DNA of 14,674 nt from an uncultured delta proteobacterium (GTDB taxonomy: Bacteria > Desulfobacterota > RBG-13-43-22). Positions 2,240-14,674 of the stretch are shown in pieces (within the stretch, counting starts at the first letter, position 1; every line of letters begins with the position of its first letter). Where the stretch lies: contig CAWJJC010000007.1 in NCBI GenBank assembly GCA_963843145.1, positions 1 to 14,674 of the forward strand. The letters run 5' to 3'. The notes below the pieces were generated by a model. That model worked only from the letters and a program-made list of their open reading frames with translations. It was not told the origin of the DNA and did not search any database. The translations under genes were made by a program, and so were the position numbers.

Positions 2240-4120
2240 TTATCTTTTCCCGAAATGTCTAAAACCGGCTACGGCGAAATCGCCACCGTAGTTAACAACC
2301 GCCCAGGCAGTGTGTTTTTTCAGGTCGATACCATAGGTGCCGAGACCGTAGCTCGAGTTGTATGGCCCTAGGACGAATTTCTTGACGCTGCCGTCACCGA
2401 AATTCATATCCACGGCGTTGACCCAGTTACCGTTCTCATCCGGGGCGGCCAGGCCTAACAAGCCGTGTCCGAATTGAACCGGGAGCAAGCGATGGTGATC
2501 GTAGCTCATGGAGAGGACATACGTATCGGTCTTCTCGGCGCCGAGGTCGGCCATGCCCCACAAGGTCAGAATGTCGCTTTCGGGATCATCACATTTCTTC
2601 CGCGTCCCGTTATTCTTAGGTGCCCAGCCGGTGTTGACGGCTTTTTCGGTCGCCTTCCCGTAGTTGGTCGTGGCCGTGCTTCCGTTAATGCCGTCGAGGA
2701 TGGCCATGGAGGTGCCGACAAACCCGCGTTCCATATGGGCGGCCACCTTTGTATCATCGGTCATGGCGTAGGACGCGCCTTGAGCAACGAGGTTCTCTGT
2801 ACCGTTCAAGCTGTAGCCTGTGGTGGACCGCTTGACGAAGTGGAGGGTGGGGGTAGTCCCGAGGGGAAAGTTGACGAGGTCTAAGTTAAAATAAGGGAAT
2901 TTACCGTCCGACTGCCAGTTGCCGTGATCGTCGGCATAGTAGTCGATGGTCACGCGCGGGCCGTCCACGGTGAAGATGTAATATCCAACACGTGCGAGGT
3001 CCTGTTCAACCGGGGCATCATTGCCCGAAGCGGGTAAACCCGGGGTATAGAACTTGGAGCTATCAGACTGGGTGATGAGCTGATGAACCTTGCTCAGTCC
3101 ATCGGGGCTCGTAACCACTGAATTGTAATGGTGGTGATCGTGGCCGGAAATCACGTACTTAACATTGTTGGCCTGCATCGAGTCGAGGAAGGTGTTCATG
3201 GCAGACTGCTTGCCACCAACAGTGAGCCCTGGGGTGTTGGTAATCACCGTGTCGGGATCAAGCCCATAGCCGTCACCGGGATCGTTGTTAGCGTTTCCAC
3301 CGAACATATTGTCCTTGTGGTTGCCGCCCAGGATGTTCTTGTGGGTAAAGGCGAAGGCGTGGGTGTTGGCCGGACGGCCGGAGAGGGTGCTTTCGATCCA
3401 CGACTGCTGATCGGGGATGTAGCTGGTGTAGTAATCGGGGGATTTGAACTGGTCGAGCAGCATGAAGGTCACGTTTTTATAGTCGAAGGCGTATGAGACG
3501 CCGCCGGTGTAAGCGTTGACGCTGTCGGGTGCGGAGAAGTGGCTGCCCACCTTGAATGTTTTTTGTTTGGCCTTGTCCGCCGGTGGATTGCCAGTGATGG
3601 GGTCCAGGTCGGCGGAAGGGATGAGGGCCGTATTGATGTCGCCCGGGGTGTTGTTATTTACACCGGCGTAGGAGTCAGGCACGATCTGGGGGTAGGCATG
3701 CTCATAATCATCGCCAGAACCCGTGTAGGTTCCGTGGGCGGCCTCGTGGTTGCCGCGCAGCGGGTAAAAGCCGATGCCCGCATTGTACAGGTCCTGGGCG
3801 TAGAGCGCCCGGGTGTAGTCATTGACCTGGCTGCCCGAGTCCACCATGTCGCCGACGTGGACGACGAGTTTGACGCCCTGGGCGATGAACTGCTGATCCA
3901 CCTGTTTGATGATGTCGGCGGCGCAGGTATTCGGGTTCTTACCGTCATCCGCTATGGTCCACTGGGTGTCCGAGATGACGCCGAAACTCCATGGTTCTCC
4001 GGATGCCGGTCCCGCTGTAATTTTTTGTAATGAACATGCTTCCGCGGATGTCGACCCCACCGCGATGAGAATCGCGAGCAGCAGGGCCAACGGTGTTTTG
4101 GACCAAAGTATTTTCTTCAT
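2240..4120 (-). CDS. Secreted calcineurin-like metallophosphoesterase (phosphatase-like), 626 aa
   Basis: Signal peptide (MKKILWSKTPLALLLAILIAVGSTSAEA). Metallophos motifs SDTQ, HVGDMVD, LRGNHE, FTHKN, ISGHDHHH. Extra C-terminal domain. AAAGGA SD. Confidence 0.9.
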   Translation of the reverse strand: MKKILWSKTPLALLLAILIAVGSTSAEACSLQKITAGPASGEPWSFGVISDTQWTIADDGKNPNTCAADIIKQVDQQFIAQGVKLVVHVGDMVDSGSQVNDYTRALYAQDLYNAGIGFYPLRGNHEAAHGTYTGSGDDYEHAYPQIVPDSYAGVNNNTPGDINTALIPSADLDPITGNPPADKAKQKTFKVGSHFSAPDSVNAYTGGVSYAFDYKNVTFMLLDQFKSPDYYTSYIPDQQSWIESTLSGRPANTHAFAFTHKNILGGNHKDNMFGGNANNDPGDGYGLDPDTVITNTPGLTVGGKQSAMNTFLDSMQANNVKYVISGHDHHHYNSVVTSPDGLSKVHQLITQSDSSKFYTPGLPASGNDAPVEQDLARVGYYIFTVDGPRVTIDYYADDHGNWQSDGKFPYFNLDLVNFPLGTTPTLHFVKRSTTGYSLNGTENLVAQGASYAMTDDTKVAAHMERGFVGTSMAILDGINGSTATTNYGKATEKAVNTGWAPKNNGTRKKCDDPESDILTLWGMADLGAEKTDTYVLSMSYDHHRLLPVQFGHGLLGLAAPDENGNWVNAVDMNFGDGSVKKFVLGPYNSSYGLGTYGIDLKKHTAWAVVNYGGDFAVAGFRHFGKR

Positions 4121-4474: not shown

Positions 4475-4612
4475 GTGCAAAATCGAAGAAAGTCGGCCAG
4501 GATGAAATTTTGGTTAACAAACCATTATCTGATCATCATCCAATTGGCGGGGATGGCTTCGTCGCTTCACTCCTCGCAATGACAGCCCGGGGGACTTTCT
4601 GCGAGTCCGTCA
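4475..4612. mobile_element. Degenerate MITE-like element carrying half of a REP-like palindrome
   Basis: Inverted ends tcgaagaaagtc (4483-4494) / gactttctgcga (4593-4604), 11/12 match. Internal gcttcgtcgcttcactcctcgcaatgaca. Confidence 0.45.
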
Positions 4613-5230: not shown

Positions 5231-5375
5231 ACAAAACCTGGAAGGGGTCCATTCAAATAAAAGGCGATTCCCCCTTTGAGCTAGGTAACCCACCAATTTG
5301 GTGAGGCTGCCGGGTCTGGGAGAAAGGGTTTTCCAAAGGTACTCCGGACTTCTTAGCCGGGCCTAGCAGATTACC

Positions 5376-6299: not shown

Positions 6300-8186
6300 A
6301 TGGAAGAAACAAGCTTGGAAGCCCCCCCATTTAAAATTGATTTTCAGTACTCTCGTCCCTGGCCCCGCAAATTTTTTCCTCTGATCGAAGCCTCTCTGGA
6401 GCGGGCCTTATCCTTTCCCCGCTTAAACAGGATGTATGCCCAAGTGGCCTGCGGATCGGACGACCGGTCCTTTTTCGAGAGGTCGCTGGCCCAACTGCGC
6501 ATCGGCCTCCAGATCTCCGAACTTGATCGAGCCCGTCTGCCCCGTCGGGGACCGGTCGTGGTAGTCGCCAACCATCCCTTTGGAGGCATCGAAGGCCTCG
6601 TCCTGGCCGATTTGCTCCTCAAGGTCCGGCCGGATGTGAAGATCCTGGCCAATTATCTTTTGGAACGCATCCCGGAAGTACGGGATTATCTGATTTTCGT
6701 GGACCCTTTTGGGCGGAAAGAATCGGCTGGGAAGAACCTTAAAGGTCTGCGGGAGTCCATTGATTGGCTGAAAAACGGGAACTTGCTGGGGATTTTCCCG
6801 GCCGGGGAGGTGGCCCACTGGAGTTTGAAAAATAAATCCATCACCGACCCGAAGTGGGGAGAGCTGGTGGCCGGCCTGGTCAGGAAAAGCAGGGCCTCGG
6901 TGGTCCCGGTCTATTTTCAGGGAAGAAACAGTGCCTGGTTCCATCTCCTGGGATTGATTCATCCGCTGCTCCGGACGGCGATGCTCCCTCATGAGTTGCT
7001 GAACAAAATGAATTCACAGGTTGAAATCAAGGTCGGCCAGCCGATCCCCTTCAAAAAAATTGAACGGTTTGCAAACGATCGGGAGCTAATCGAATATCTC
7101 CGGCAACGAACTTACCTGCTGGGTAAGCGCCTACCTGAGAACCAAAATGGTGTAGAAAAGCAACAGGTGAAACGGAGACGGGCCTGGAAGCCTTTGGTCG
7201 TGCCCACCGTTAAGAATTTTCTGCTGGAAGAAGTCCGTAATCTACCCGAATCCCAGGTACTCCTGGAACAGGAAGACTATGCAGTTTTCTGGGCCCGGGC
7301 CTCCCAGGTTCCCTATGTTCTTAGGGAAGTGGGCCGGTTGAGGGAAATCACTTTCCGGGAAGCCGGGGAGGGGACCGGAGAATCCATCGACCTGGACCTT
7401 TTTGACTCGCATTATCACCACCTGATTCTTTGGCAGAAAAAGACCCTTGAAGTGGTAGGGGCTTACCGTCTGGGGCCCACGGACTTGATATTAAACCGTT
7501 ACGGGAAGAAGGGGCTATACACCACTTCCCTGTTTAAATTTCACAACGACTTCTTCCTGCAGGTTCATCCCGCCCTGGAATTGGGGCGATCCTTCATCCG
7601 CCGGGAATACCAACGAGCCTTTAGTACCCTGATGCTGCTCTGGAAAGGCATCGGGCAGTATGTGGTCCGCTACCCCCGGTACCGCTTTCTCTTCGGGCCG
7701 GTGAGCATCAGCGACGACTACCGGCGCATTTCCAAAACCCTGCTGATAAAATTTTTGCGGGAGCAAAATTATCGTCCGGAGCTGGCCCGCTGGGTCAAGG
7801 CCAAGCGTCCTTACCGGCAGGACCTCCGCAAAGGATGGATGGACCAGGCTGTGGCTTCCATGATCGGGGACGCCGCCGAAGTATCGGATTGGATCGCCGA
7901 ACTGGAGGCGGACCAGAAAGGCATTCCCATACTTTTGAAACAGTATTTAAAGTTGGGGGGTAAGCTGTTGGGCTTCAATATCGATGCCCAATTCAGCCGG
8001 GTGGTGGACGGATTGATTTTGGTGGACCTGGCCAAGACCAACCCGGTGGTGCTGGAAAAATACCTGGGAAAAGAGGGGGCCGACTTCTTCCTAAGCCACC
8101 ATCAGACCCCGGATACGGCTGAGGTCGTTGGCCGGTTTCCCGGGGCGGAAGAGGCCGAAAGCCCTCAGACCGCCAACGCGGCCTGA
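6300..8186 (+). CDS. olsF: Bifunctional lysophospholipid acyltransferase / GNAT N-acyltransferase, OlsF-type ornithine (amino)lipid synthase
   Basis: N-terminal PlsC-like domain (VVANHPFGGIEG, IFPAGEV). C-terminal Acetyltransf_5-type domain (EVGRLREITFREAGEG, GAYRLG, LELGRSF, IPILLKQYLKLGGK). AAGGAGGT SD. Confidence 0.85.
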   Translation: MEETSLEAPPFKIDFQYSRPWPRKFFPLIEASLERALSFPRLNRMYAQVACGSDDRSFFERSLAQLRIGLQISELDRARLPRRGPVVVVANHPFGGIEGLVLADLLLKVRPDVKILANYLLERIPEVRDYLIFVDPFGRKESAGKNLKGLRESIDWLKNGNLLGIFPAGEVAHWSLKNKSITDPKWGELVAGLVRKSRASVVPVYFQGRNSAWFHLLGLIHPLLRTAMLPHELLNKMNSQVEIKVGQPIPFKKIERFANDRELIEYLRQRTYLLGKRLPENQNGVEKQQVKRRRAWKPLVVPTVKNFLLEEVRNLPESQVLLEQEDYAVFWARASQVPYVLREVGRLREITFREAGEGTGESIDLDLFDSHYHHLILWQKKTLEVVGAYRLGPTDLILNRYGKKGLYTTSLFKFHNDFFLQVHPALELGRSFIRREYQRAFSTLMLLWKGIGQYVVRYPRYRFLFGPVSISDDYRRISKTLLIKFLREQNYRPELARWVKAKRPYRQDLRKGWMDQAVASMIGDAAEVSDWIAELEADQKGIPILLKQYLKLGGKLLGFNIDAQFSRVVDGLILVDLAKTNPVVLEKYLGKEGADFFLSHHQTPDTAEVVGRFPGAEEAESPQTANAA

Positions 8187-8256: not shown

Positions 8257-8475
8257 ATGAAAAAACTATTTGTTTTACCGCTTTTCTTGGTGTGGGTGGC
8301 CTGCCTGTCCACCTATTGGAAGGAAACGCAAATGTGGGCCCAGAGTTTTTCTGGATTATACTTTAGTGGGGGGCCCACCTCACCCGCCTTGGAACCCGGC
8401 ACCCTGCTTTTTTTAGGGTCCGGACTCTTGGGAACGGGATTTGTCATCCGAAATAACTGGATGAAGAAGGATTAA
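8257..8475 (+). CDS. Miniature exported protein with a PEP-CTERM-like sorting signal, 72 aa
   Basis: N-terminal signal (MKKLFVLPLFLVWVACL). C-terminal LEPGTLLFLGSGLLGTGFVIRNNWMKKD matches the PEP-CTERM pattern. Confidence 0.7.
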   Translation: MKKLFVLPLFLVWVACLSTYWKETQMWAQSFSGLYFSGGPTSPALEPGTLLFLGSGLLGTGFVIRNNWMKKD

Positions 8476-9099: not shown

Positions 9100-10398
9100 T
9101 TACAACAACCGGGCCCCCAGCTCGGCCACTTGGGACCTTTCCCCTTTGATCAAGGTTACGTGCCCGGTGATCTCCTCGCCTTTCAGCTTTTCCACCAGGT
9201 AGCTCAAGCCGTTGCTGTTGGCGTCCAGGTAGGGATGGTCGATCTGCTCCGGATCGCCGGTGAAGACGATCTTGGTGCCCCCGCCGACCCGGGTGATGAG
9301 GGTCTTGATCATGTGGGGGAAAGGTTCTGGGCCTCGTCGCAGATGATGAACTGCCGGGGAATGCTGCGGCCGCGGATGTAGGTCAGCGCCTCCATTTCGA
9401 TCAGGCCCCGCTCCAGCAGGTCCTCCACCACTGCCGAGGGCTGGGCGGCGCTATTGGAGAGGAACTCCAGATTGTCGTAGATGGGCTGCATCCAGGGGCG
9501 GAGCTTTTCTTCCTTGGAACCGGGAAGATAGCCGATGTCCTGTCCCATGGGGATAACGGGACGGGTAATCAGCAGCCGGTGTAAATTGATTTTGCTCCAT
9601 CACTTTTTCCAGCCCCACCGCCAGGGCCAGCAGGGTCTTGCCGGTCCCGGCCTTGCCCACCAGGGTGACCACCTTCACCGGATCGTCCAACAGCAGCTCC
9701 AAGGCGAACTTCTGTTCCTTGTTGCGGGCCTTGATGCCCCAATTGGGGATTTTCCGTGGGACAGGGGCAGGAGATGTCCCGGAAGTGCCGGGCCAGGGCG
9801 GACTGGGAGGGGTTGACTCTTGCCTCAGGAGGATGAAAAAATGATGGGGCCACGCGGCTCGGTTTCGGAGACCTGCACCCGACCTTCCCGGTAGAGGCGG
9901 TCCAGTTCCTCGGCGCTCAGGTGCCTTTCCTCCACGCCGTTATAGAGCTGCTGATAATCGACCCTATCCGACTGAAAATCCTCCGCCTGAATCCCCAGCA
10001 CGTCGGCTTTGATGCGCAGGTTCAAGTCCTTGGTGACCAGGACCGTGCCGCCTTCCTGGCGGCGGTTCAAATAATGCGCCACGGCCAGGATGCGATTGTC
10101 GAATTTTGGGGTCCAGGCGCCGGGAGGCTCGTGCCATCCTGATGGTTGAGTTCGATCCACAACATCCCGCCGTCTCGGCATGGGTAGTCCCTCCGCAAGA
10201 TTGCCATGGGCCCGCGAGGGCGTCCAATTTTCGCGAGACCATCCGTGCATTCCGGCCGATCTCGTCCTGCCCCCTTTTCTGGTTGTCGATCTCCTCCACC
10301 ACCGCCAACGGAATGATGACTTCGTTGTCCTGAAAGGCGAACAAAGCGTTCGGATCGTGCAGCAAGACATTGGTGTCTAAAATATAGAGGTTGGACAT
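9100..10398 (-). pseudogene. phoH: PIN-PhoH (PhoH2-type) ATPase with about 8-10 frameshifts (pseudogene or sequencing error)
   Basis: PIN domain YILDTNVLLHDP, DNRILAVA, LVTKDLNLRIKAD. Walker [41 protein letters not shown]. These motifs are spread across all three minus frames. Confidence 0.9.
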
Positions 10399-10452: not shown

Positions 10453-10537
10453 TGAAATCCCCCTAAATCCCCCTCTGCTAAAGGGGGACTTTAACTCCCC
10501 CCCTTTGGCAAAGGGGGGGCGGGGGGGGGGATTTTCA
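10453..10537. repeat. C/G-tract palindromic REP-like element
   Basis: Terminal TGAAATCCCCC / GGGGGATTTTCA with two internal hairpins, ccccctctgctaaaggggg and ccccccctttggcaaaggggggg. Adjacent catgc...gcatg palindrome (10536-10564). Confidence 0.7.
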
Positions 10538-10632
10538 TGCTTCGGGGTGCCCGCCCCGGGCATGGGGGTTTAGTAGGTAAAGGAGACAAGAAATCGTTTC
10601 CTGGGTGTTTGTTTTGGGCCGTCTTCCCGGAT

Positions 10633-13101
10633 TCATACGGCCTCGGCCAGGTCGCTTTTCCCGGGACGGAGCGGGTGGCGGTACATTTCCCAAGTTTCCT
10701 GGAAAGCCTTCTCAAAAGAGCGGTCCTCCAAAAACTGCCTCGCCGCCAGTCCCATGCGTTTCAGTCGCAGGGGATCGGCAACCAGGTTTTCCACGGCGTC
10801 GACGAGGGCCTGGGGATTATTTGCGGGGACGATCAGCCCCGTTTCCCCGGACAGAATGTTTTCTTGAGGCCCGCCCTGGTCTGTCACAATGACCGGCAAT
10901 CCCGAGGCCTGGGCCTCCAGAATGACATTCCCGAAGGTATCCGTACTGCTGGGGAAAATGAACAGATCGGCCGAGGCATAGGCCGCCGCCAGGTCCTCCC
11001 CGTCTAAATATCCGGTAAACAGACAGGGGGTATCACTCATCCAGTCTTGAAATTCTTTCCAATAGGGTCCGTCCCCCACAATAATGAGCTGCAGGTCTTT
11101 TCGCTGGTGCCAGATCCGCTGATAGGCCTCGCCTAAGACCCGGAGGTTTTTTTCTTTGGAGACCCGGCCTACGTAGAGGAGCTTAAATCCCGGCCGGACG
11201 GCGAACCGGGCCTCAAAAAAACCGTTCCGCTTGTCCGGATGGAATCGCTGCGTATCGATGCCCCGGGCGAAGAGTTGGATCTTGTTCGCGGCCAGGCCCT
11301 TTCCGATCAATCCCTGCCGGGTGCTTTGGGAGGGGACATAGACCCGGTCCATCTGGTCATAATACCAGCAGATATATTTCCAGGCGAGATCTTCGATATC
11401 GGGGTCCTCGGTCAGGTAGCGGGCGTACTGAGGGATCGAGGTGTGGTAGGTGCTGTAACAGGGCAGCTTGAGAATGCGGGCGATCACCAAGGCCGCCAGA
11501 CCGACCGGACCCGGAGTGGCCGTGTGGATGGCCACAAACTGCTCCCGGTAGCAATACTGCAGCATTTCCAGAAAAGGCGGAAAATGGAGTTTGAATTCCG
11601 GGTACTCCGCCAGGTCGTAAGATCCGACGGGACGGAATTTTTTGATTTCCGGCTCGGCGTCCTGTTCGTCGGTCCAGTCACAAGTGATGACCGTGAGTCG
11701 CTTGTTGTTCTTTTTGGCCATGGCTACCTGTTGCTGGAGGGTCAGCGCCACTCCGTTGACCTGATAAAAGGTATCGGTAAAATGGGCGATCCGCAACCGC
11801 CGGGCGGGTTGGGCGGAGGGTGGGCCGAGAGGGCAGGAACGATTGATTTCCTCGGCCAGGTGCCGGTCCTGGGCGAAATGGGAAAAAGCGATGAAATAGG
11901 GGGCCATGAGGAAATAAAGCGAACCGGCGGAACCGACGGCCTGGAAAAGGCTGAAGACGTTTCCTTGGGACAGGTTATCCAAAAGGACGTTGCCGATCTG
12001 GAAAAGAATGCGGTTGGAAATCTGGTTTACCAGGGAAAACCACTTTTCTTCCAGCGGACGGGTTTGATCATCTCCATTTTTCAGGAATTGTTTCAAGGCC
12101 GGGTCGCCGGCCAGCAGCTTATAGATTTCGAAACGCAGGTAGTCCGGGAGGGACTGGAGGGTCTGTTGTGACCGAGAAGACCGTAAGCGGGCGCGGAGCA
12201 GATCGTAGACCTTGGAGACCAGCCGGGATTCACTCTGGTGCGGCGAATGGAGGAAGCGGTGCAACAGGCGCAGGAGCAAGTCTTTATGGAGATATTTGTC
12301 CAGTTGGAACTTATGGCAATAGAATTGGTAGGCAATGCTGTATAGGGTGCGGGCCAGCGAGGCCGGGGACGAAGCCTCCCCACAAACGACTGAACGTCCC
12401 TGCTCCAGACCCTGAAAAAAGTCATTCAGCGTCCGGGCGCCGAGCACCTCCGTATATTGCCGCCCAAGCGACAGGGTGCTGTGATCGTCGGACCCGCCGG
12501 TCAGGTGCTTTTCCCAGGGGTGGTCTCCGTAGGGGGCTAAGTTATACCGGTCGGCCAGCTTTTCCAGGTCAACCTGGCGGAGACGGGAAAGGAGTTCTTG
12601 CAAGAGGATATTGAGGTGTCCGTCCCGGGCCCCGTTCAGCTCGAAATAATTGAACAGCAACAGGCAACGTTCGAAATGGGTGAGGGTCAGCCGTTCATTG
12701 ACCCCGAAAAGAGGGTGGGCCAGCACGTGAAAGATTCCCCGGGAACGGAGATAGGGAACCAGCTCAAAGACGTTTTCCCGGAGGGTCTGCATTTCCCGGT
12801 GGATGACCTCATCGATTTGGTAGACCAGGACATGGAGCTTGCAGCGGTCCTCCGGAAAATAGGTAGTAACTTCTTCACTGAGAAAGGTGTGCGGCAGATG
12901 GGCGATGTCCAGGGACCCGGTCAGTTGATTGTGGTCGGTAATGGTGACATGGGTCAACCCTTGCTGCCGGGCCAGTTGATAAAGGCGCAGGGGCTCGGAA
13001 AAACTTTCCGGGCAGCCGATCTTTTTCAGTATCCAGGTGGAGGGGTTGCGGGAGTATTTGGAGTGGAGGTGCATATCGATTTTTACGGTTTGGGCTTCCA
13101 T
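10633..13101 (-). CDS. PHP-family metallohydrolase fused to a GT4 glycosyltransferase (putative glycolipid synthase), 822 aa
   Basis: PHP motifs DMHLHS, ITDHN, LAHP, FELNG, GGSDDH. GT4 motifs FTDTFYQVNGVA, HTATPGPVG, YVGRVSKEKN, DTFGNVILEAQASG. AAGGAG SD favours ATG at 13101. Confidence 0.9.
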   Translation of the reverse strand: MEAQTVKIDMHLHSKYSRNPSTWILKKIGCPESFSEPLRLYQLARQQGLTHVTITDHNQLTGSLDIAHLPHTFLSEEVTTYFPEDRCKLHVLVYQIDEVIHREMQTLRENVFELVPYLRSRGIFHVLAHPLFGVNERLTLTHFERCLLLFNYFELNGARDGHLNILLQELLSRLRQVDLEKLADRYNLAPYGDHPWEKHLTGGSDDHSTLSLGRQYTEVLGARTLNDFFQGLEQGRSVVCGEASSPASLARTLYSIAYQFYCHKFQLDKYLHKDLLLRLLHRFLHSPHQSESRLVSKVYDLLRARLRSSRSQQTLQSLPDYLRFEIYKLLAGDPALKQFLKNGDDQTRPLEEKWFSLVNQISNRILFQIGNVLLDNLSQGNVFSLFQAVGSAGSLYFLMAPYFIAFSHFAQDRHLAEEINRSCPLGPPSAQPARRLRIAHFTDTFYQVNGVALTLQQQVAMAKKNNKRLTVITCDWTDEQDAEPEIKKFRPVGSYDLAEYPEFKLHFPPFLEMLQYCYREQFVAIHTATPGPVGLAALVIARILKLPCYSTYHTSIPQYARYLTEDPDIEDLAWKYICWYYDQMDRVYVPSQSTRQGLIGKGLAANKIQLFARGIDTQRFHPDKRNGFFEARFAVRPGFKLLYVGRVSKEKNLRVLGEAYQRIWHQRKDLQLIIVGDGPYWKEFQDWMSDTPCLFTGYLDGEDLAAAYASADLFIFPSSTDTFGNVILEAQASGLPVIVTDQGGPQENILSGETGLIVPANNPQALVDAVENLVADPLRLKRMGLAARQFLEDRSFEKAFQETWEMYRHPLRPGKSDLAEAV

Positions 13102-13138
13102 GGCAGTCAACTCCTTTACGAATTTGAAAAATTCTCAA

Positions 13139-13834
13139 CTATTCGATTAACAGGGTTTCCCCGGCCCGGACCCGGTCACCGGTTTGAACCCGAATCCTCA
13201 GTCCTGTCGCCCGCGGGACCACGACATCCACCTGAGACCCGATCCGGATCATTCCGAATATCTCCCCGCGGGAGACCTGGTGCCCGGGTTTAAAATGACT
13301 TTCGATACCTCGGACATGCTTTCCGGCTATCTGAACGACATAACAGGGCAGACGCTGGTCCCGGTAAAGCCCTTCGATGCAGGTGACGGTCCGTTCGTTT
13401 CGCAGCAGGTGCAGGGAATTTCTGGTGTAATCACTCCGCCGGATCAGGGAACGCCAATGCATGGGCAGCATCTGCACGTTGTCCGGGTCGGCGGGATAAT
13501 GGTGGATGAACTTGATTTCTCCGGAAAGCGGAGCCCGGTTATAGTGCACATTGAACGGACTCATGAAGATGCCGATGTGAATTTTAGGGCAGGCCAGGTC
13601 CTGACGGCAGATATCGTTGATGCTGGCCGCGGTCCCTTTTTTTATGGCGATGATCTTTTCGCGAGGACCGACTTCCTGGACATAGACGACCCGCCCATCG
13701 GCCGGGCTGACCAGTCCCGACCCTCCCGGCGTTCGGCCGGGGTTGCGGAAGAACCAGATGTAGCGCCAATACAGGTAGGCCGAAATCAGGAGGATGAAGC
13801 CTGTTCCGATAATGAGCATGTTCCGGTCTTCCAT
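13139..13834 (-). CDS. psd: Phosphatidylserine decarboxylase family proenzyme
   Basis: N-terminal TM helix, WFFRNP, SPADGRV, IGIFMSPFNVHYNRAP, and the IRIGSQVD self-cleavage (GS) motif. Confidence 0.88.
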   Translation of the reverse strand: MEDRNMLIIGTGFILLISAYLYWRYIWFFRNPGRTPGGSGLVSPADGRVVYVQEVGPREKIIAIKKGTAASINDICRQDLACPKIHIGIFMSPFNVHYNRAPLSGEIKFIHHYPADPDNVQMLPMHWRSLIRRSDYTRNSLHLLRNERTVTCIEGLYRDQRLPCYVVQIAGKHVRGIESHFKPGHQVSRGEIFGMIRIGSQVDVVVPRATGLRIRVQTGDRVRAGETLLIE

Positions 13835-14549
13835 GGGTTTTCCTTAAGAAGTCGAACCAGGGCGACTCCGGAAGAAAAGGGGAAGGTCGACTGACTTCAA
13901 AACAATCGGGCTCACCTTTCAATTCCTGGACGAAGCGTTTGACTCCGGCGTGCCTAGGGCCTCTCGTACATAAATGTGGGAGTCATGAAGGAAAACGTAG
14001 CTGTTGGGCCGTGCCTGCCCGGGCAGTTTGCCGGAAATCATAGGAGACATCCTTATAGGCACTGATCGCCGTCGATGAAGGCCAGATCGATGGGCGGCAA
14101 ACTAAGCTGGGAATATTGAGAAAAGAACTGATCACTGCGCAGCTTGTAGTGGGTTATCCAGCGATCGACCCCGAAGCGGGCGAAATGATCTTTCACCTTC
14201 AGTGGATTATTCCATTTCGACTGACCGCCAACCGTGTGAAACGGACCGTTCTTGATCAAGGAATAGAGGGGTCGATAAAGGAAAGGTGTCCTTTCCCGTT
14301 GTCCTTCAGGCCCAGGGCCAGGCAAACCACGGAGAAGCCGTGTCCGGAGCCGATGACCAGGATGTGTTTGGGACGTACGGCCCGGACCAGACCGTAATAA
14401 AGGAAGCCGAATCCCAGGTTGGCGTTGCCCGGCCGGGAATGGTGCCCCAGCGGTTTGGCCTTTTTTAATATGCGTTGAATCAGATCGGGGGAGAGGCTGA
14501 AGGCCGAGAGGTCTATTACTTGAGGGCTGGTTTTGACTCGGTACAACAT
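13786..14549 (-). pseudogene. Class I SAM-dependent methyltransferase (Methyltransf_24-like) with about 5-6 frameshifts
   Basis: RPKHILVIGSGHGFS, IDLAFIDGD(H)AYKDVSYDF, PNSYVFLHD and GVKRFV spread over several frames. The 3' end is approximate. Confidence 0.8.
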
Positions 14550-14559
14550 ATGGGGGAAT

Positions 14560-14616
14560 ATTATACCCCCGGGAATATGGCGGAATTATGTCGATCCAAT
14601 GATTTTAAGGTAAAAA
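14560..14616 (-). promoter_or_regulatory. Pho-box-like promoter heading the methyltransferase-psd-PHP/GT4 operon
   Basis: TTTTTAC-ctta-AAATCAT-tgga-TCGACAT-aatt-CCGCCAT-11 nt-TATAAT. The ATG is only 10 nt after the -10 and has no SD. Confidence 0.6.
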
Positions 14617-14674
14617 CAGGGGCCGGAAAAATTTAATGTTGATTGCCCTTTTCGGGGGTGAGAGTAAATGTTCA

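Follow-up and report, generated by a model that had tools for sequence, protein, structure and literature searches.

A probable membrane-lipid remodelling operon of Desulfobacterota, built around a PHP-glycosyltransferase fusion akin to the glycolipid synthase of a sulfate reducer

The glycolipids MGDG and GADG (monoglycosyl- and glycuronosyl-diacylglycerol) replace phospholipids at low phosphate, and in alpha-proteobacteria the glycosyltransferase Agt works together with the phospholipase C PlcP, a calcineurin-like (LpxH-type) metallophosphoesterase that is encoded beside it. For the sulfate reducer Oleidesulfovibrio (Desulfovibrio) alaskensis G20, Bosak et al. (PMC5193443) describe Dde_3613 (agt) as homologous to the Agt of Agrobacterium tumefaciens, place it 47 locus tags from olsF (Dde_3661), and report that an agt mutant is without MGDG and GADG at low phosphate, the only condition under which these glycolipids appear. 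Here we analyse a group of three genes on a 14,674-base stretch of DNA from an uncultured delta proteobacterium, the whole contig CAWJJC010000007.1 (C7; hereafter the window). The three genes encode a methyltransferase (MT), a paralogue of phosphatidylserine decarboxylase (PSD-P) and a fusion of a PHP domain with a family 4 glycosyltransferase (PHP-GT4). A preliminary description of the window, made from its letters, had listed them as three co-directional minus-strand genes, and the analysis of open reading frames (ORFs) and profile matches bears this out. We consider it probable that the locus is an operon for the remodelling of membrane lipids, conserved within Desulfobacterota (Thermodesulfobacteriota), with the PHP-GT4 fusion, a probable orthologue of G20 Agt, as its core.

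The window's fusion protein is 48% identical from end to end to ABB40406.1, an 816-aa protein of O. alaskensis G20 annotated as "glycosyl transferase group 1". In genome G422, a protein 100% identical to ABB40406.1 is followed by an OlsF homologue about 49 kb downstream, with 38 to 50 ORFs in between; from the name and this spacing to olsF we infer that ABB40406.1 is Dde_3613, which would make the fusion the Agt of sulfate reducers. The preliminary description had proposed an undescribed lipid pathway, and for its glycosyltransferase this claim falls: the fusion is the probable full-length orthologue of the glycolipid synthase on which PMC5193443 reports, and this part of the locus would already be known. 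The accessory pair of MT and PSD-P and the PHP domain, on the other hand, are new variants on a known core system. Like the window's protein, ABB40406.1, the probable G20 Agt, combines a PHP-linker-GT4 architecture with an OlsF gene nearby and a context that points to phosphate limitation, but no MT or PSD-P gene lies beside the fusion in those G20-type genomes that were searched. The kinship described here is to the G20 protein. Within a family-level sample of Desulfovibrionaceae, the PHP-GT4 family was found in 137 of 301 genomes (E<=1e-150). The source paper is silent on the PHP domain as far as its main text goes, where PHP, phospholipase and PlcP have 0 occurrences (PMC5193443, supplements not covered). 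The literature searches listed no article in which a PSD paralogue accompanies MT and PHP-GT4, and none in which a PHP domain serves as a lipid phospholipase; PMC12777485 proved irrelevant.

The reading frame of the fusion ends with a stop at 10633 and comprises 825 aa when counted from the TTG at 13110. The ATG at 13101 is the more likely start, with an AGGAG 9 nt upstream, and yields a gap of 37 nt to the PSD-P gene. The layout given in the preliminary description, a gene overlap and then a 37-nt gap, agrees with this start and with the 49 nt by which the end of MT overlaps the start of PSD-P, an overlap likewise found in the intact orthologue at locus L008. The GT4 domain matches PF13439, PF00534 and PF13692. 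A structural model of the full-length protein (predicted local distance difference test score, pLDDT, 80.8; predicted template-modelling score, pTM, 0.80) matched GT4 enzymes only in a Foldseek search (best E 1.7e-21), with MshA, BshA, PimB' and PimA as the best folds and GlgM and sucrose-phosphate synthases also represented, and the PHP part was therefore modelled separately. The resulting model of residues 1-250 (pLDDT 89) had 31 Foldseek matches at E<=0.001, of which those listed were PHP proteins, with template-modelling (TM) scores of 0.5-0.58. These PHP-fold matches comprised RNase AM (2.4e-9), PsfC, BVU_3505, BAD_1165, TM0559, Cv1693, EndoQ and the PHP domains of Pol III alpha. In 22-24 sequences, no variation occurs at D12, H14, H16, E35, D59, H60, E79, E80, H93, H132, D208, D209 and H210, and by analogy these residues would be PHP metal ligands (HxH near the N-terminus, later His residues, and DxH near the end). 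The scores of the PHP part lie below the profile cut-offs (PF02811, 17.8 vs 26.4; CehA/McbA, 26.4 vs 80), and neither single-sequence nor profile searches of the PDB gave anything useful for it (best profile E 0.2). The linker between the two domains contains a long, moderately hydrophobic helix at residues 385-425.

This architecture resembles the plcP-agt operon known from alpha-proteobacteria and from SAR11 in that a phosphoesterase appears to be coupled to a diacylglycerol (DAG) glycosyltransferase for phosphorus-free lipids. In the window, however, both activities are predicted to reside in one polypeptide, and a PHP fold stands where PlcP has a calcineurin-like one. The PHP domain would therefore be an analogue of PlcP and not a member of its family, because its fold is PHP and not of the Metallophos/LpxH type. 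BtaA and BtaB are comparable by analogy only: they, too, pair an enzyme dependent on S-adenosylmethionine (SAM) with a second head-group enzyme for a phosphorus-free glycerolipid under phosphate stress, but their pathway has no decarboxylase and the window's MT comes from another Pfam family. PF11899, which we take to be the BtaA family, had no match in the genome in a search run without a positive control. As to the ornithine-lipid synthase OlsF, the window encodes an OlsF-like protein at a distance of 2.4 kb, but OlsF constitutes a separate pathway whose product is without a free alpha-amino acid, and it is present without the trio in G422.

To assess how far the trio is conserved, we searched a sample of 401 genomes from the phylum, the identical set for all three genes, with cut-offs of E below 1e-60 for MT and E below 1e-40 for PSD-P; the query for the fusion was its N-terminal stretch of 430 residues. 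PHP-GT4 was detected in 68 genomes (frames of about 800-900 aa), MT in 26 genomes that all belong to these 68, and PSD-P in 23 genomes from 8 families that all belong to the 26 with MT; no exception to this nesting was seen among the 401 genomes. In 22 of 22 other genomes, PSD-P resides on the contig of PHP-GT4, and the gene order is MT-PSD-PHPGT4 throughout with G148 (PHPGT4-MT-PSD) as the sole exception. Three genomes (G229, G286 and G161) possess MT and PHP-GT4 without PSD-P, and the 5 Desulfovibrionaceae genomes with PHP-GT4 in this sample have neither MT nor PSD-P. The three-gene neighbourhood is thus conserved across 23 genomes and at least 8 families of the phylum, although formal Fisher values overstate the nesting because related genomes are not independent. 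A pattern-based search for related loci had recovered 3 close relatives only, its patterns being too specific.

PSD-P matches PF02666 with an E of 8.8e-39 (133.7 bits, cut-off 22) and starts with a hydrophobic N-terminal segment. The motifs SPADG, VHYNRAP, NERTVT and IGSQ (Gly-Ser cleavage) are kept in all 13 aligned P-type sequences, which also show two clade-specific insertions; we presume that Gly-Ser self-cleavage, the Asp of SPADG and the His of VHxN have the roles assigned to them in work on E. coli Psd. The protein stays below every NCBIfam PSD equivalog cut-off (best 125.8 vs 225), and sequence searches of the PDB with it returned nothing useful. Similar proteins, 56-57% identical to PSD-P, are recorded under the names of Desulfoferrobacter suflitae and a Desulfomonile tiedjei MAG. 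Three proteins of the genome match PF02666, namely PSD-P on C7, a near-copy on contig C20, and a psd product of 211 aa encoded on contig C17. The C17 gene sits directly upstream of a CDP-alcohol phosphatidyltransferase gene (pssA), between ilvC and leuA, and by this context the two are the housekeeping psd-pssA pair. Matches to the CDP-alcohol phosphatidyltransferase family (PF01066) were found only on contigs C2, C25, C17 and C27, in line with the earlier remark that the window contains no phosphatidylserine synthase.

Housekeeping-type (H-type) psd genes are present in 22 of 22 other genomes and adjoin pssA in 15 of the 20 loci that were fetched, and PSD-P is 30-34% identical to this type. 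A maximum-likelihood tree of 44 sequences placed the H type (21 sequences), PSD-P (13) and a longer X type (10) each on one side of a branch, with support values of 91/90, 94/91 and 100/100, respectively. The preliminary description had suggested that this enzyme may differ from a canonical Psd, and in part this is supported: it is not the genome's only psd, and PSD-P forms a clade of its own as an old paralogue. With the housekeeping short-type Psd it has in common the Pfam family, the Gly-Ser pyruvoyl site, the Asp and His motifs and the N-terminal membrane segment; it differs by its separate clade, by the two insertions, and by its location, which is never beside pssA and always beside MT and PHP-GT4. 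We predict that PSD-P is a catalytically intact pyruvoyl decarboxylase that acts on phosphatidylserine (PS) or on another lipid head group with a free alpha-amino acid. The PSD family of this phylum would comprise at least three functionally separate branches, and automatic "phosphatidylserine decarboxylase" labels would therefore hide different chemistry.

In three genomes, a second conserved module is located 5-8 kb from the operon (L050:13845-18530, L051:1610-6108 and L040:613-5281). It encodes a protein of ~840 aa, a PSD homologue of the long X type with a PGSS site (~340 aa) and a protein that resembles Lgt (PF01790, E 3.7e-9). The ~840-aa protein matches no Pfam family, and the Atlas clusters nearest to it are most frequent in Thermodesulfobacteriota. 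One may speculate that Lgt-type diacylglyceryl transfer to a thiol and subsequent decarboxylation could yield sulfur-containing aminolipids (compare the available text of PMC11181052). The PF02666 search found no X-type PSD in the window's own genome (G000).

The intact orthologue of MT at L008 has 253 aa (L008:4547-5308). PF13578 is matched with 69.3 bits by the intact orthologue P0121 (cut-off 26.3), and the first fragment of the window's MT reaches only 22 bits to Methyltransf_24 on its own. The SAM motif VIGSGxGFS as well as FIDGxH and HD are invariant in 12 MT sequences. The nearest families (Methyltransf_24, Methyltransf_3 and CmcI) are O-methyltransferase-like, and MT is probably a metal-dependent enzyme of the O-methyltransferase type; a sequence search of the PDB gave no structural relative. 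An apparent fusion of MT with PHP-GT4 at L052 (an ORF of 1084 aa) was rejected as an artefact of ORF extension after BLASTP with an MT query had matched nothing there.

The region upstream of MT had earlier been described as a phased-heptamer, Pho-like promoter. It contains a sigma-70-like TTTACC-18-CATAAT at 14614-14585, a TATAAT at 14565-14560, and three CAT-ending heptamers at 11-bp spacing between 14605 and 14577, and four close relatives have almost the same sequence in the last 85 nt before the MT ATG. The 11-bp phasing is real but marginal: the self-similarity at lag 11 (13/22) is the best of lags 5-20, with a P of 0.03 for lag 11 chosen in advance and of 0.34 over all lags. The designation as Pho-like is not borne out: the window's promoter scores 4.3 bits against our Pho-box model with a shuffle P of 0.41. 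This model, built from 17 pstS promoters found in the phylum (consensus nTGTAAC, four bases, YYGTAAC), took the place of the E. coli consensus CTGTCAT-N4-CTGTCAT, which was significant in only 2 of 21 loci. No dimer of the TGTAAC or TGTCAY type occurs anywhere in the window, whose best Pho-box-like site is TCGACAT-aatt-CCGCCAT. The best site of the agt promoter in G422, CGGTCAT-actt-CCGCCAT (6.2 bits, P 0.065), has the same second heptamer, which hints at a Pho link. Across loci, 9 of 25 operon promoters reach at least 10 bits, compared with 6 of 89 control promoters, and the near-duplicate on C20 has a 14.5-bit site 756 nt upstream, next to the start of a divergent P-type ATPase gene.

A link to phosphate is borne by the neighbourhood of the operon, around which phosphate-regulon genes are recurrent. 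Divergent pstSCAB genes are found upstream in L050 and L051, and pstS and phoU lie ~5 kb upstream on C20; phoA adjoins the operon in L052 and L056, and L042, L044 and L045 encode a PhoB-like regulator together with a kinase. PhoH2 follows the operon in 4 loci, olsF adjoins it in 4 of 21 loci, and L052 and L057 contain a flippase-like gene (PF03706). Judging from this gene context, expression of the operon is probably raised by phosphate starvation.

In the pathway that we propose, the GT4 domain would glycosylate DAG, and the fused PHP metal-phosphoesterase would yield this DAG by acting on a phospholipid or on phosphatidate. As translationally coupled, lineage-specific additions, MT and PSD-P occur only together with PHP-GT4 and therefore most likely work downstream of it in the pathway or share its lipid pool. 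Since G20-type genomes make MGDG and GADG without MT and PSD-P, the pair should add something else. A pyruvoyl decarboxylase requires a free alpha-amino acid; ornithine lipid and plain glycolipids are therefore excluded as substrates of PSD-P, and PS or a head group installed by MT would remain, of which the nesting favours the latter, installed by an MT-like enzyme. That MT and PSD-P tailor the glycolipid pathway is nonetheless a tentative reading, plausible but slightly more open to doubt than to belief, with a smaller share of probability left to roles of another kind altogether. The preliminary description had suggested that the two enzymes tailor a phosphorus-free head group made by the GT4 or OlsF enzymes: their occurrence only with PHP-GT4 fits tailoring in the GT4 pathway, but a link to the OlsF product is unlikely because ornithine lipid is without a free alpha-amino acid and olsF is so rarely adjacent. 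We regard it as decidedly unlikely that the lipid made by PHP-GT4 receives from MT and PSD-P a new head group that bears an amine and is free of phosphorus, and that the PHP domain is a new kind of lipid phosphoesterase replacing PlcP. The strict nesting, with PSD-P only where there is MT and MT only where there is PHP-GT4, would fit such a linear pathway, in which PHP-GT4 makes a glycolipid (or DAG), the MT-like enzyme modifies it and PSD-P decarboxylates the product. In the boldest version of this proposal, the MT-like enzyme would transfer the 3-amino-3-carboxypropyl group of SAM instead of a methyl group, and PSD-P would trim it to aminopropyl. If true, on a glucuronosyl lipid this would create a zwitterionic, phosphorus-free stand-in for phosphatidylethanolamine (PE).

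Several observations weigh against a remodelling operon as we describe it. The equation of ABB40406.1 with Dde_3613 comes from spacing and name and not from a database record. The lipid phosphoesterase activity that we infer for the PHP domain is argued from analogy, and the known substrates of PHP enzymes are nucleotides, histidinol phosphate, nucleic acids or phosphoproteins. Genome counts include related genomes, so that independence is overstated. The window's own promoter has its low Pho-box score next to a -35-like hexamer, with only 125 nt of upstream sequence on the contig, and the E. coli Pho-box consensus failed at most loci. Furthermore, the acceptors of the closest GT4 folds, such as MshA and sucrose-phosphate synthase, are soluble and phosphorylated, and a fused phosphatase would make sense in that setting, too. 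The fusion could accordingly be a synthase-phosphatase for a soluble or non-lipid glycoconjugate, with the GT4 domain acting on a phosphorylated acceptor, the PHP domain removing the phosphate, and MT and PSD-P unrelated to DAG glycolipids. BshA and GlgM are likewise among its best folds, and fusion or pairing of a glycosyltransferase with a phosphatase is usual in such pathways. Nevertheless, we judge this very unlikely in view of the membrane segment of PSD-P, the hydrophobic helix of the fusion, the lipid genes in the neighbourhood (OlsF and the flippase-like PF03706) and the probable G20 orthologue that is required for MGDG and GADG according to PMC5193443. PSD-P itself retains every PSD motif and the N-terminal membrane segment, scores far above the PF02666 cut-off and could be supplied with PS by the PssA of the genome, all of which is compatible with plain PS decarboxylation; that it is simply an isozyme of PS decarboxylase is possible, if doubtful. 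An elaborate form of this idea has PSD-P make PE and MT N-methylate it to the mono- and dimethylated forms (PME and PDME), lipids that have been reported from sulfate reducers, in a phospholipid branch that shares only regulation or location with agt. We consider this rather unlikely: PSD-P reaches none of the PSD equivalog cut-offs, is distant from the housekeeping type and has insertions of its own, and a generic isozyme would not be expected solely in genomes with both MT and PHP-GT4 (23 of 23). Moreover, MT resembles O-methyltransferase families and not known PE N-methyltransferases, and more phospholipid beside phosphate-starvation genes would be counter-intuitive.

A different kind of doubt concerns the state of the genes in the window. 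C7 is one of 32 contigs of a 5.35-Mb metagenome-assembled genome (completeness 97.9%, contamination 6.9%) whose close relatives go by the labels Thermodesulfobacteriota or "uncultured delta proteobacterium". Because it is ~90% identical and syntenic to C20:12005-27909 on a 778-kb contig in the same bin, C7 is probably a co-binned variant from a related strain. Its MT is spread over three frames by six single-base indels relative to L008, and PhoH2 is likewise frame-broken. Were these frameshifts real, the trio would be a decaying, non-functional duplicate; such a view could appeal to the uneven spread of the indels, six of them in the ~760 nt of MT, several more in PhoH2 and none that breaks PSD-P or the 2.5-kb PHP-GT4 gene, and to the fact that C7 duplicates C20. 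However, the frameshifts of the C20 near-copy (L004 4222-7328 and 9567-12039) hit other places, with PHP-GT4 in three pieces and the P-type ATPase, MT and PhoH2 split too, and since C7 and C20 are broken at different places the pattern is typical of an indel-prone assembly. Every MT piece matches the family in its own frame, and the contamination suggests two co-binned strains. In addition, a short-read contig (run X1) supplies the base absent at 14264 and restores the MT frame there, in a check of sequencing runs that listed none of RNA and drew on three DNA runs covering small shares of the window and leaving most of it without cover. The MT frameshifts are therefore most likely assembly errors. 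MT could truly have decayed in this strain, which would count against our interpretation of the window itself, but we consider decay of the trio improbable.

Beyond this locus, phosphorus-free lipids of anaerobes serve as phosphorus-stress markers in sediments, and few of their genes are known. One lipidomics study of a sulfate reducer reports new low-phosphate lipids, and term searches of it found no passage on genes for them (PMC11181052). A glycolipid synthase of sulfate reducers that carries an unremarked PHP phosphoesterase domain could hold the missing DAG-producing step, and a dedicated decarboxylase and MT accompany it in about one third of these operons across the sampled phylum, from which we predict that bacteria akin to Syntrophobacter, Desulfomonile and Desulfobaccales make a further class of lipid.

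Table 1. Features of the window and their coordinates.
Feature	Positions	Strand	Remarks
Upstream region	14550..14674	-	Ends at contig end; promoter-like hexamers and phased heptamers
MT, predicted Methyltransf_24 class I SAM-dependent methyltransferase	13786..14549	-	ATG at 14549, last-frame end at 13786; six single-base indels; PF13578 in intact orthologue
PSD-P, phosphatidylserine decarboxylase paralogue, 231 aa	13139..13834	-	PF02666
Predicted PHP phosphoesterase domain of PHP-GT4 fusion, residues 1 to ~245	12376..13110	-	Fold and invariant residues
Helical linker of PHP-GT4, residues ~246-430	11821..12375	-	Helix 385-425; no Pfam family
GT4 (GT-B) glycosyltransferase domain of PHP-GT4	10633..11820	-	PF13439, PF00534, PF13692
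PhoH2 (PIN + PhoH)	9100..10398	-	Downstream, co-directional; several frames here; intact 433 aa in L008
OlsF-like bifunctional acyltransferase	6300..8186	+	Convergent neighbour; NF052615 E 1.8e-124, 416 bits, cut-off 620 not reached
Calcineurin-like metallophosphoesterase, 626 aa, signal-peptide-like N-terminus	2240..4120	-	Profile match

Among the other genes around the operon, P-type ATPases with HMA_2 and/or small HMA_2 proteins recur beside it in several families (L008:1109-3946, L048, L040, L051 and L094). The calcineurin-like metallophosphoesterase of the window is possibly a secreted, phosphorus-scavenging enzyme; its length and its likely location presumably speak against a PlcP-like role. 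A 72-aa ORF at 8257-8475 on the plus strand has a signal-like N-terminus, and its C-terminus resembles, by eye, a PEP-CTERM sorting signal. The window also contains repeats at 862-994, 4549-4606, 5262-5365 and 10531-10575 of which many 88-100%-identical copies exist on other contigs of the genome, and the last of these sits between PhoH2 and PHP-GT4, beside long runs of C and G.

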